DNA of 64,000 nt from Candidatus Bathyarchaeota archaeon (GCA_963780185.1 CAWABA010000006.1:608001-672000); one strand, 5' to 3'. Positions 15,527 through 56,188 are shown, counted from the first letter of the stretch. Notes: generated by a model from the letters alone, not told the origin. Program-made: numbers and translations.

Positions 15527-15550
15527 TGTGACTGTGCCTATACAATCACA
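15527..15550 (+). promoter_or_regulatory. palindromic upstream element, copy 1
   Basis: TGTGACTGT-GCCTAT-ACAATCACA followed by CTTAAA TATA-like box. Confidence 0.7.
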
Positions 15551-15822
15551 TAATCTTAAATTTTTTACAATTGAATTAACAACCTGTGCATCTGATGCAA
15601 CTGAGTGAGAGAACAAAAATGCGAGAAACTGATAGTTTGCCAGGGAGCAACCACCACCCGACAGCGAAACTCTCATTTTTAGCAGGTGCGCCGAATTTTT
15701 TATCGGTTGCGTTGAAGAGATTTGGATTCAAACTGACGTTTTTTCTTGTTCCCCTTGAACATGGAAGAGCACCCAATCTCTGAAACCAACCATTTAAAAA
15801 CCTTTGGAGTTTGAAAAGAAAA

Positions 15823-16242
15823 ATGCCAACAGCTTTCGTACTTTTAAATACAGAAATCGGAGCCGAAAACCAAGTTTTAAGTGCACTTAGAAAAATTGAA
15901 GGCGTAGAAGAAGCTCACAACCTTTGGGGAGTTTACGACATAATCGCAAACGTCAAGGCAGAGAGCGTCGAGAGGCTTAGGTACATAATTACCAAAAAAA
16001 TCGGCCAAATTGGAAGAATAAACTCGAAGCTTACAATGATGATAACGGATACGACCGCAGCCGACATTGGAAGAGAAGGTGTTTTTTGCGCAGAACCCGA
16101 TGGAAAACGCTTTGGTCCATTAGTTCCACCTCAATTTTTTTTATTTAAACAACATTTTTTTAACCTTGCAGTCCATTCTCTAAATCAGCTTGGAGAGAGG
16201 ATGCTTGACCACGCAACAGGTAATGCATATCGGGTTAGATGA
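15823..16242 (+). CDS. stand-alone RAM domain protein #3; 3' end probably frameshifted
   Basis: PTAFVLLNTEIG..WGVYDIIANV; tail runs into a T-rich terminator-like region and overlaps tiaS. Confidence 0.75.
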   Translation: MPTAFVLLNTEIGAENQVLSALRKIEGVEEAHNLWGVYDIIANVKAESVERLRYIITKKIGQIGRINSKLTMMITDTTAADIGREGVFCAEPDGKRFGPLVPPQFFLFKQHFFNLAVHSLNQLGERMLDHATGNAYRVR

Positions 16243-17561
16243 TACAGACTCAACTAAAGGAGGCTGCACCACCTACCTCGCCGCTTTGCTTGTTGAGAAA
16301 CTCGTCGGATTTCCAAGCAGAATTCATCGACTACCCACTCTTAATTCGGCTTAACCCAAACGTGCCGTGGAAAACCCGAGGCAACGGCGCCCTTTGCCTA
16401 AGATTCAGGCACCCAACCGCCTTGGAACAGAAAATAAAAGAAATAGCTCTGGAGCTGTGGGAGAAAAACTCAGCCGTCAAGGAAAAAGGCACGGACCCAG
16501 GCATAGTTTTTTTTAGCGGGGAAAAAATTCCCGAGGAATTTACGGCGTTTTCGAAAAGGGCTGAAACAAGCATTGTGACGCTGCGGGAAGCGTTGTCGCT
16601 TATCAAGAGGTTTGGCGGGGAGGCTTGCGGGTTTAACTCTTGCCGCGGCATAATCGGCGCTTTGGCAGCCATCGGCGAAACCCTCAGCTGCGACCACACT
16701 TACGAGCTAATCGCTTACAGGACGCCGCAGATGTGGGGGACAAAGCGGCTGGTGGACGAAGCGTCAATTTTCGAAATGGACAAACAACTGGAACCCTGCG
16801 TCTTTAACAACGTGGATGCGGAGAAACAAAGAGTAATCATCACTCCGCGAGGTCCAGACCCCATCCTTTTCGGCATCAGAGGCGAAACACCAGAAGCAGT
16901 AAAACAAGCTTTCGGGTTGGTTAAGCCGCTTGAACCCGTCGAACGATGGGTTATCTTCCGCTCAAACCAAGGCACCGACGCCCACCTCAAACACGCCCCA
17001 ACCCTAAGAAGCATCGAACCATACAGCTCCGTAATCGCCAAAGGAGAGGTTTCGCAGAATCCGCGGATTGTTCCCCTGCGCCACGTTATCTTTTCAATAC
17101 GGGACGATTCGGCAGAAGTGGATTGCGCCGCCTACGAGCCGACGGGTGACCTGCGGAAAATCGCCAGAGAACTGATAGTAGGCGACTGCGTCGAGGTGTA
17201 CGGGGCTGCCCATAAGGCGACCAAGAGTAAGCCTTTGACGATTAACCTTGAAAAAATCAACATACTCAGCCTTGCATCGAAAACGCGGACAGAGAACCCG
17301 CTTTGCCCAGACTGCGGCAAACATTTGAAATCGATGGGGAAAAACCAAGGTTTTCGTTGTGAAAAATGCGGCGGGAAATTTGCAGGTTTGAAAAAGAAAG
17401 ATTTGGCTGTGCCCAGGGCGCTTGGGGTTGGGTTGTATGTGACTTCGACAAGGTCGCAGAGGCACCTAACTAAGCCGCTAAGGCGGTACGGGCAGGAAAA
17501 AACCGCAGCCTCGCCGCCAGTGCTGATTGACGGGTGGCACAGTGGTTTTCACAAAATTTAA
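16205..17561 (+). CDS. tiaS: tRNA(Ile2) 2-agmatinylcytidine synthetase, frameshift near 16312
   Basis: N-terminal HIGLDDTDS..GGCTTY in an alternate frame; RLNPNVPWKTRGNGA, SNQGTD, AYEPT, C-terminal zinc ribbon, RHLTKP. Confidence 0.93.
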
Positions 17562-22844: not shown

Positions 22845-22868
22845 TGTTACTGTGCCTATACAGTCACA
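22845..22868 (+). promoter_or_regulatory. palindromic upstream element, copy 2
   Basis: TGTTACTGT-GCCTAT-ACAGTCACA then TTTTAAA; part of a 63-bp near-duplicate of 15518-15580. Confidence 0.7.
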
Positions 22869-22903
22869 TGATTTTAAATTTGGTACAATTGAATTGACTA
22901 AAC

Positions 22904-23985: not shown

Positions 23986-24142
23986 AATTCTTAAGGGCTT
24001 TGATATGCCCTGTTTTTTTATATTGTCTCTTGCTTAATCGCTTTTTTTCAAAGAAAATAGCTCTCAAGAACTCACATGGGATGTTGAGAAAGGCCATTAA
24101 TGCAAAAGCCAGTTAAGTCCCGAATTGCCCGTTCCGAAAAGT

Positions 24143-24166
24143 TGTTGTTGTAATGGTACAGTCACA
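24143..24166 (+). promoter_or_regulatory. palindromic upstream element, copy 3
   Basis: TGTTGTTGT-AATGGT-ACAGTCACA then TATTTAT. Confidence 0.6.
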
Positions 24167-24211
24167 TCAGTATTTATGATTCAAGAGGCGTTATATGGAT
24201 AACAAGGGAAT

Positions 24212-24277
24212 AACTTAAAGGCAGGCGGACTGATTCTCCCCTCTCTCTTCCCGAATTTTTACGCTTGCCTTTAAGTT
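24212..24277 (+). ncRNA. candidate hairpin sRNA with CU-rich loop, copy 1
   Basis: 16-bp stem AACTTAAAGGCAGGCG/CGCTTGCCTTTAAGTT (one G-U), inner ATTC/GAAT closing TCCCCTCTCTCTTCCC; promoter upstream, pyrimidine tract downstream. Confidence 0.55.
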
Positions 24278-24616
24278 TCTCTCTCTTCTTCCTTAACCCG
24301 CATCTCTTTTTAGACAGTGTATCGCATAAAAATGTGATGGCATCTTACCGCTCTGTTGCTTCCTTGTTGCCTCTGGGTTTTGGCTAGAAACAAGCAGGGG
24401 AGTTGATCAAGGCTTTTTTGTTGATGATTTTAAATCGCCGTTGCATTTTTGCCATCAAGAAATGCCGCTTCACTTGCTGTTTCCTTGAGCAAAAAGGGCA
24501 TAGAATCATCTGCATGATTATTTTGTGTGTTAGGCTAGAAGAAACCTTATAAGGGAGCATGCACATGCGTGCATTAGGTGAAGCGGTGCATTAGCACCAA
24601 AGCACTGGTGAAACAT

Positions 24617-55953: not shown

Positions 55954-55963
55954 CTTGCCTGCT

Positions 55964-55987
55964 TGTTGTAGTGCATATACAGTCACA
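55964..55987 (+). promoter_or_regulatory. palindromic upstream element, copy 5
   Basis: TGTTGTAGT-GCATAT-ACAGTCACA then TTTTTTAT. Confidence 0.6.
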
Positions 55988-56022
55988 TTGTTTTTTATGC
56001 TTGCATTAGGCATTAAATGTGA

Positions 56023-56157
56023 TTAAGCGCAGAGGCGATAAGTTCTTTGCGTTTAGCAAGTGAATGGTTGACTGTGACGCAAGCTGTTAAGTAATGTTCC
56101 CCACTCTCTCTTCCGAACACCTTTTTGGCTTGCGCCATAGTCAAAACCATCATTTGC
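56023..56157 (+). ncRNA. candidate two-hairpin RNA with CU-rich loop, copy 2
   Basis: 12-bp hairpin, then a long interrupted stem (56056-56157) with G-U pairs; inner TGTTC/GAACA closing CCCACTCTCTCTTCC. Confidence 0.55.
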
Positions 56158-56188
56158 CAAATAATTTTTAAAAAAGGAGACTTAAACT

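Follow-up and report, generated by a model that had tools for sequence, protein, structure and literature searches.

The window analysed here is a 64,000-nt stretch of a Candidatus Bathyarchaeota archaeon genome (GCA_963780185.1, CAWABA010000006.1:608001-672000). An earlier note on this DNA had pointed to a hairpin at 24143-24295 in a gene-free gap, and both parts of that description are borne out: the interval 23986-24383 contains no open reading frame (ORF) of at least 50 aa, and a 16-bp stem enclosing ATTC and GAAT is present there, both by reading of the sequence and in the predicted fold. In the minimum free energy (MFE) fold, the arms of this main stem lie at 24212-24227 and 24262-24277 (plus strand), with one G-U pair among the 16 bp, and covariation over 52 sequences supports the same pairing. 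A 4x4 internal loop separates the main stem from an apical 5-bp helix (24232-24236 with 24253-24257, plus strand) that includes ATTC/GAAT and presents a 16-nt, all-pyrimidine loop (24237-24252, plus strand), unpaired with a probability of 1.0. A motif search locates the seed, CTCTCTCTTCC, at 24241-24251 in this loop, and a second CU tract, CTCTCTCTTCT (one mismatch relative to the motif), at 24279-24289 in the 3' tail, both on the plus strand. The helix is further lengthened by its flanks, which are purine-rich on the 5' side and pyrimidine-rich on the 3' side. A 168-nt stretch of the locus folds at -47.3 kcal/mol, compared with -31.8 ± 3.7 kcal/mol for 200 dinucleotide shuffles (z -4.15; none of the 200 as good), and the reverse strand folds more weakly (z -2.37). 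With at most one mismatch allowed, the CTCTCTCTTCC motif occurs at four sites in the window against 0.83 expected, a number reached by 2 of 100 shuffles.

We predict a small RNA (sRNA) of ~115 nt at 24197-24311 on the plus strand, hereafter copy 1, from the fold statistics and from matches to two covariance models: R1, built from 5 sequences and applied with a cut-off of E ≤0.1 (24189-24313, 126.9 bits), and R2, a broader model built from 52 members (24189-24312, 98 bits). Both ends are predicted from signals in the sequence: the start would lie ~23-25 nt past a TATA-like box, and the end at a run of five T residues (24307-24311, plus strand), a putative archaeal terminator. T-runs follow the hairpin at the same place in the aligned members.

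Upstream of copy 1 is a dyad-like promoter element consisting of TTGTTGTTGT, a 6-nt spacer and ACAGTCACAT (24142-24167, with ACAGTCACAT at 24158-24167), followed by the TATA-like box TATTTAT (24171-24177); both are assigned to the plus strand, the direction being suggested by the same arrangement before tRNA and protein genes. A second locus in the window, copy 2, is preceded on the plus strand (55960-55998) by TTGTTGT, ACAGTCACAT (55979-55988) and a T-rich, TATA-like box (55991-55998), and the upstream element precedes nearly all of the 52 aligned members of the family. The earlier note had remarked on the upstream element and TATA box shared by the two copies and had taken the RNAs to be co-regulated. 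The shared element is indeed found at both loci, but it is not private to these RNAs: the host genome has 31 instances of CA[GA]TCACA with a TATA-like box after it, against 5 for a reversed control, among them instances ahead of a tRNA gene (21 nt upstream), of the rRNA operon and of the window's PadR-like genes. The promoter element therefore argues for a promoter of its own at each copy, belonging to a shared promoter class, and not for specific co-regulation. With a promoter before it, a T-run after it and no ORF of at least 50 aa, the locus has, in its sequence, the marks of the separate transcription unit expected of a trans-acting sRNA, from which we infer that the sRNA is transcribed.

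The dyad-like element, in the form TGT..CTGT, a 6-nt spacer and ACAGTCACA, also stands just upstream of TATA-like boxes at ~15527-15560 and 22845-22880 in the window and at C9:24269 and C6:503112 elsewhere in the host genome. Two PadR-like genes with this element adjoin copy 1. It may represent a promoter element particular to the lineage, or an operator bound by a dimeric regulator.

Copy 2 (56046-56171, plus strand) is a divergent paralogue in which, as the earlier note had seen, GTTC and GAAC enclose the loop within a longer stem of different sequence. The closing helix is formed by GTTC (56096-56099) and GAAC (56115-56118) on the plus strand, and the loop, CCCACTCTCTCTTCC (56100-56114, plus strand; unpaired probability 1.0), ends in the seed CTCTCTCTTCC at 56104-56114 on the same strand, as found by motif search. 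R1, which was built without copy 2, nevertheless retrieves it with 36 bits (E 1e-5), and R2 matches it with 58.4 bits (E 9e-13). A T-run at 56165-56169 marks the predicted end of the RNA, and the ATG (56189) of the next gene, identified by Pfam as TFS (a zinc-ribbon factor), is 20 nt beyond this run; an orthologue of copy 2 in another genome (L209) has a covarying stem and likewise precedes a TFS gene. Extending the motif search to the whole host genome, as the earlier note had proposed, added two more: a third copy, near-identical, on contig C10, and a fourth, weaker one on contig C6. With R2, the host copies are thus four (window 24189-24312 and 56046-56171; C10:14223-14350 and C6:525063-525182, both on the minus strand), in addition to one weak match, and the closest pair is 80% identical over 171 nt. 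The copy on C6, together with L210, L213 and L214, constitutes a subfamily in which the 13-bp stem is GC-rich and the loop contains a run of seven T residues (T7).

The absence of further homologues would have spoken against a family, and a covariance model had been suggested as one way to look for them: R1 matches 80 of 101 genomes of the genus, including 53 of the 62 high-quality ones, mostly with several matches each (1-13 per genome in the genus genomes other than the host, both strands counted). BLAST against 40 relatives identified clear homologues in three genomes of the same genus, and R2 found matches in four of five genus genomes that were negative with R1. Twenty lower-scoring members have different stems and the same promoter and loop. 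In an order-wide sample, R1 was positive in 6 of 10 genomes of the host's own genus, in none of 15 from other genera of the family, and in none of 95 from 11 other families; R2 found no match in 39 further genera of the family. Among named records, 35 loci were picked up by a pattern scan: 29 are labelled Candidatus Bathyarchaeota or Bathyarchaeia, five "uncultured archaeon" and one a Limnocylindrales bacterium metagenome-assembled genome (MAG), and Bathy-6 labels appear in two of the record titles. By these sequence matches, the family is found in one genus of Bathyarchaeia (Bathy-6 type). The single bacterial record (L076, on a 14.8-kb contig, as against 34 archaeal records) is probably a mis-binned contig.

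Members of the family occupy conserved positions. One orthologue group of seven loci, including copy 1, lies upstream of an uncharacterised gene followed by grpE and dnaK; a second, of 11 loci, has a convergent gene of ~350 aa downstream; and in a third, of 10 loci, a small Cys-rich ORF begins ~190 nt downstream (L038, L041, L044, L050, L051, L055, L057, L059, L060 and L062). The latter ORFs encode ~50 aa with CxxC and WCC or CPxCG-type motifs, and ORFs of the same kind directly follow L118 and L136; copy 2, for its part, precedes the zinc-ribbon factor TFS. A link between the sRNA and small zinc-finger proteins is possible. The member at L057 (2712-3120) is located 1.1 kb from a 16S rRNA gene in divergent orientation; this rRNA gene was the only feature detected when the flanks of 9-12 loci were scanned for tRNAs and Rfam families.

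Covariation was evaluated on a MAFFT alignment of 52 members made without structural information, from which RNAalifold predicts the main stem. Across a 20-pair stem, 92.2% of cells are paired, and in 16 of the 20 pairs both partners have changed (72 cells); on each of five measures the observed value is unmatched by 500 column shuffles, and sliding the stem partner by 1-3 columns, as a control, lowers pairing to 27-53%. Together with the distribution of R1 matches, this covariation supports what had been proposed from the window, namely a new structured sRNA family with a conserved loop and a covarying stem, and it shows the family and its hairpin structure. The helix also indicates the strand: its cells contain 132 G-U pairs against 39 A-C (A-C being G-U on the opposite strand), and since the promoter and T-run have the same orientation as this excess, the plus strand is identified as the RNA. 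In the subfamily linked to GH5 genes (see below), the transcribed strand is ambiguous from the helix.

The predicted RNA was compared with established classes. Rfam 15 gave no match anywhere in the window at gathering thresholds, and at E values up to 10 the two loci returned only noise resembling microRNA precursors (12-24 bits against thresholds of 45-100). Eukaryotic microRNA precursors are likewise long, imperfect hairpins, but the matches to their models are far below threshold (gathering scores of 60-100) and fall on both strands, so that the resemblance is one of generic hairpins. Archaeal C/D-box sRNAs carry C (RUGAUGA) and D (CUGA) boxes at their two ends; by eye, the 52-sequence alignment contains no UGAUGA column block, and CTGA appears only in the copy 1 subgroup, in the internal loop. 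Archaeal H/ACA sRNAs combine a pseudouridylation pocket with a K-turn or K-loop and carry an ACA box downstream of the hairpin; on reading, the alignment has no conserved ACA past the stem and, in copy 1, only the 4x4 internal loop.

The loop is strongly conserved. Its core, CTCTCTCTTCC, is exact in 47 of the 52 members, and the seed has an unpaired probability of 1.0 in all four host copies. The extended form CTCTCTCTTCCTGAA, comprising the loop and the 3' side of the apical helix, represents the commonest sRNA type (21/52), and six members, copy 1 among them, have CTCTCTCTTCCCGAA. A second CU 7-mer is present in the 3' tail of 21 of the 52. Full-length duplexes between sRNA and leader are inflated, as intramolecular structure is ignored in them, and only the accessibility figures from that analysis are retained here.

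The main new result is a predicted target: by sequence complementarity, the loop would face a purine tract immediately before the starts of secreted GH5 genes. This tract, TTCAGGAAGAGAGAG, is the exact antiparallel complement of CTCTCTCTTCCTGAA and sits 3-8 nt ahead of the start codon of secreted GH5 glycoside-hydrolase genes; in the host, the GH5 gene at C3:9832-11970 (Pfam PF00150) has a perfect 11-nt seed complement 4 nt upstream of its ATG. Homologues of this gene are present in 18 of 41 genomes (40 of the genus and the host), with proteins 51-82% identical to the query. Among 23 homologues aligned at their N-termini, TTCAGGAAGAGAGAG (15-mer) is exact in 11, GGAAGAGAGAG (11-mer) in 14, GGAAGAGAGA (10-mer) in 21 and GAAGAGAGA (9-mer) in 22, always a few bases upstream of the start codon, and the tract is the only island of at least 85% conservation between -75 and +45. 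A conserved, accessible seed is accompanied by a conserved complementary site, a combination expected of a trans-acting sRNA. The canonical Shine-Dalgarno (SD) sequence predicted from the 3' end of the host 16S rRNA is GGAGGTGA, and GGAAGAGAGAG is rare in the host genome, with nine occurrences, including the antisense strands of four sRNA genes and the GH5 leader itself; hence the purine tract is not a generic ribosome-binding site. In copy 1 and the copy on C10, a C opposes an A of the leader, giving 11 bp, a mismatch and at least 4 bp instead of 15 contiguous pairs. Both seed and target are nearly invariant, so that no compensatory seed-target change is shown, and the purine tract may owe its conservation to translation initiation itself.

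A search of the genus with a leader-type pattern yielded 87 matches, spread over 52 of the 101 genomes, against 9 for a reversed control. Thirty such loci comprised 24 with a promoter, the tract, a start codon and a signal-peptide-like N-terminus, five sRNA genes in antisense, and one that is unclear; where the tract is followed by an ORF of at least 100 aa, 16 of 22 encode GH5. No Pfam domain was recognised in three full-length proteins of 344-377 aa that share this leader (L226, L242 and L244; no match at E ≤1e-5). These three and L208 (344-378 aa in all) share a GH5-type promoter, the purine leader and a signal-peptide-like N-terminus, and may represent an uncharacterised secreted family within the same putative regulon.

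The distributions of sRNA and target agree in part. This type of GH5 occurs in none of 59 other genera of the family, which matches the restriction of the sRNA to the genus, and a distant host GH5 with a different N-terminus lacks the tract. Within the genus, 14 of the 30 sRNA-positive genomes among the 41 scanned for both have no GH5 homologue at E ≤1e-30 (raw counts that ignore kinship); five sRNA-positive, GH5-negative genomes were examined, and two of them contain leader-type genes that are of another kind or truncated. The host copy at C6:525063-525182 (minus strand) is convergent with a host GH5 paralogue and lies 121 nt past the GH5 stop, an arrangement also found in a second genome (G051). 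Read on the GH5 strand, the hairpin in these two genomes would be a 3'-UTR hairpin displaying the purine tract of the GH5 leader.

Duplex energies were also calculated genome-wide, for a 14-nt seed against positions -35 to +12 of ~3000 crude gene calls. Duplexes of -14 kcal/mol or better were more numerous in start regions than in coding regions (118 vs 36), but shuffled CU seeds do as well: for one third of the genes, the real seed gave 40 such matches at translation starts, compared with 19-53 for 30 shuffles, and thus no specific signal. As there is no genome-wide enrichment over shuffled CU seeds, the case rests on one conserved target family. Other top matches by energy were GH130, glycosyltransferases and beta-helix proteins. 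Two further candidates were set aside. When G-U pairs were allowed, the target search returned mainly the G-box of an unrelated intergenic repeat; shuffled seeds match this box equally, and these matches are considered coincidental. The other candidate, TCGGGAAGAGAGAG, at C6:723196-723210 (minus strand), matches copy 1 perfectly over 14 nt but lies within a kdpB-like coding frame. The intergenic repeat, with ~55 copies in the host, consists of a C/A-rich run, a G-rich box and a hairpin with an A/C-rich loop, one arm of which resembles the promoter upstream element (examples at C6:16663 and 16721, C7:175477 and 175535, and C10:55555); two units are sometimes 58-59 nt apart.

The target first suggested, a site just upstream of tiaS in the window (16193-16201), does not hold: the 9-nt match is confined to the host, being found in one of 17 genes with a recognisable N-terminus and in none of the 16 orthologues. 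The accompanying idea of an anti-SD-like seed survives in a different form, in that the seed is complementary to a purine tract at translation starts, although the conserved target is the GH5 leader and not tiaS. At the tiaS locus itself, the TiaS-like N-terminus begins with an ATG at 16223, and the long ORF (16239-17561, 440 aa) is in another frame; In the TiaS orthologues, whose open frames span 451-493 aa, alignment begins only at residue 18. Together these observations suggest that the gene has been frameshifted or misassembled near its 5' end.

We consider it reasonably probable that the family acts in trans by base pairing and masks the translation start of GH5 mRNAs. In this model, each copy would be transcribed from its own promoter and end at the T-run, and the long, imperfect hairpin would seem to serve solely for presenting a pyrimidine loop that is unpaired throughout. 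This loop, with CTCTCTCTTCC as its core and CTCTCTCTTCCTGAA as its commonest extended form, would then pair with the TTCAGGAAGAGAGAG tract in mRNAs of secreted GH5 enzymes and of the small, uncharacterised family of secreted proteins with the same leader. Because the purine tract is the only SD-like element there, such pairing should block ribosome loading and lower enzyme synthesis, possibly accompanied by decay of the mRNA, and several paralogous copies per genome could provide dosage or respond to several inputs. The exposed seed and the complementary tract are conserved features of the sequences themselves; that the two actually pair, and that the outcome is repression and not activation, we infer from their position. 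The sRNA family thus probably sets the amount of secreted cellulase-type enzymes made. A more elaborate version, to which we would give somewhat less than an even chance, is a genus-specific post-transcriptional circuit in which sibling CU-loop sRNAs mask the purine leader of an expanded GH5 family and of the uncharacterised secreted family, and in which purine-loop mimics of the leader, either antisense RNAs from a convergent promoter or the hairpin after GH5, buffer the sRNAs.

Several other readings of these loci were weighed against this model. The RNA could be a sponge or platform for a CU-binding protein, with the CU tracts of loop and tail as protein sites and the GH5 match incidental. 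Repetition of the CU motif within one molecule in 21 of 52 members, the invariance of the loop over many species, and the lack of seed enrichment at start regions over shuffled seeds would all fit, but an exact 15-nt antiparallel complement at a conserved position before GH5 starts is not expected by chance, and we regard a sponge as unlikely. We judge it similarly improbable that the hairpin acts in cis, as leader or attenuator for whichever gene follows, and is not an independent, trans-acting RNA. The short distance from copy 2 to TFS, conserved in the orthologue elsewhere, is what a leader would predict, as are L118 and L136, which directly precede GGAGG and the small Cys-rich ORF, and the seven loci, copy 1 included, that share the grpE-dnaK neighbourhood. 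Against this, the downstream context varies between orthologue groups and the next gene is convergent in 11 loci, a T-run lies past the hairpin in nearly all members, and copy 1 is ~265 nt from the next ORF; what the members have in common is the loop and not the neighbour.

Two remaining explanations concern the DNA and the opposite strand. It seems very improbable that the shared sequence acts in the DNA, as a 15-bp operator common to GH5 promoters and sRNA loci, or that the loci are palindromic remnants of mobile elements. The same 15 bp do occur in both kinds of locus, the locus is palindrome-like with an A-rich box mirrored past the terminator, and the host genome is rich in another hairpin repeat (its ~55 copies were counted by eye among 69 pattern matches); the preponderance of G-U over A-C (132 vs 39) and the compensatory changes, however, indicate that selection acts on a helix in the RNA from one strand. 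The earlier note had named MITE remnants as an outcome that would overturn its proposal, and the evidence runs the other way: copies are syntenic across several species (groups of 7, 11 and 10 loci), and the host genome has only four to five, divergent copies, and this combination of synteny, low copy number and divergence argues against a mobile element. Only slightly less remote is the prospect that the active molecule is, or includes, an antisense RNA with a purine loop, made from a convergent promoter or as the 3'-UTR hairpin of the GH5 paralogue. By imitating the GH5 leader, such an RNA would serve as a decoy, capturing either the CU-loop RNA or a factor that binds the leader. A conserved A-rich box (ATAAAAA at 24326-24332 in copy 1, strand unassigned, within 24320-24340; by eye in ~36 of 52 loci) is found 12-25 nt past the sRNA terminator, and on the minus strand it and the adjacent bases read as a TATA-like box, facing the sRNA, with the promoter-proximal bases that follow one. 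The GH5-linked hairpin adds to this, as no long T-run intervenes between the GH5 stop and the hairpin and the helix favours neither strand. However, an nhmmer scan with the promoter profile misses the A-rich box (E above 2), and the helix of the main family favours the plus strand; a regular expression for the convergent promoter was uninformative, as it recovers only 6 of the 52 sense promoters.

The trans-acting model remains the preferred one. Bathyarchaeia are among the most abundant uncultured archaea of anoxic soils, peat and sediments, and have no representative in pure culture; according to the available portion of one account, Bathy-6 genomes are outstanding in carbohydrate-active enzymes, with six GH5 genes in one closed genome (PMC11697101). 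That same portion of text contains neither "srna" nor "non-coding" (PMC11697101), and searches of published articles returned no paper on Bathyarchaeal small RNAs and none using the motif in this sense. Should the circuit reading prove true, it would give Bathyarchaeia their first described sRNA regulon, and archaea their first sRNA linked to the regulation of secreted carbohydrate-active enzymes. The proposal offers a testable handle on gene regulation in Bathyarchaeia, with a defined RNA, a predicted 15-nt pairing and a target class for plant-polymer breakdown, and would be a clean example of an archaeal sRNA target found from comparative genomics alone. The R1 and R2 models could seed a new Rfam family.

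Among archaeal sRNAs, sRNA162 is a single-copy gene. In Methanosarcina mazei, it is a trans-acting sRNA proposed to base-pair with mRNA, as described in the accessible part of the report (PMC3510493), and it is unrelated to the present RNA in sequence, lineage and target; the Bathyarchaeal family is in addition multi-copy, with a target that is comparative and not experimental. The closest parallel in design is bacterial: LhrC1-5 of Listeria monocytogenes comprise several near-identical copies of ~111-114 nt, whose redundant CU-rich motifs lie both in a hairpin loop and nearer the 3' end; by binding around the start of the mRNA of a secreted or cell-wall protein, LhrC impedes its translation, as shown experimentally (PMC4132741, from the parts available). 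The two families are alike in being multicopy (here four host copies and a weak match), in their redundant CU motifs (here the tail 7-mer in 21 of 52 members), and in acting against translation starts, which for the Bathyarchaeal RNA is proposed only. LhrC, however, is bacterial and has a short UCCC motif directed against the Shine-Dalgarno sequence, two stem-loops and a Rho-independent terminator (PMC4132741), whereas the present RNA comes from archaea and has one long hairpin, a seed of 11-15 nt, a T-run terminator and a predicted function, and at E values up to 10 neither locus has an Rfam match to LhrC. The C-rich or UCCC loops of RNAIII, RsaE, SprD and FsrA in Firmicutes also pair with purine-rich ribosome-binding sites (RBS), as proposed here (PMC4132741); in the material available on them, these sRNAs direct a motif of 4 nt at the generic SD that many genes share, while the Bathyarchaeal RNA has a long seed for one specific leader tract that differs from GGAGGTGA. 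With no match to existing models and a different architecture, it is a new sRNA family, outside all of the anti-RBS sRNA families of Firmicutes.
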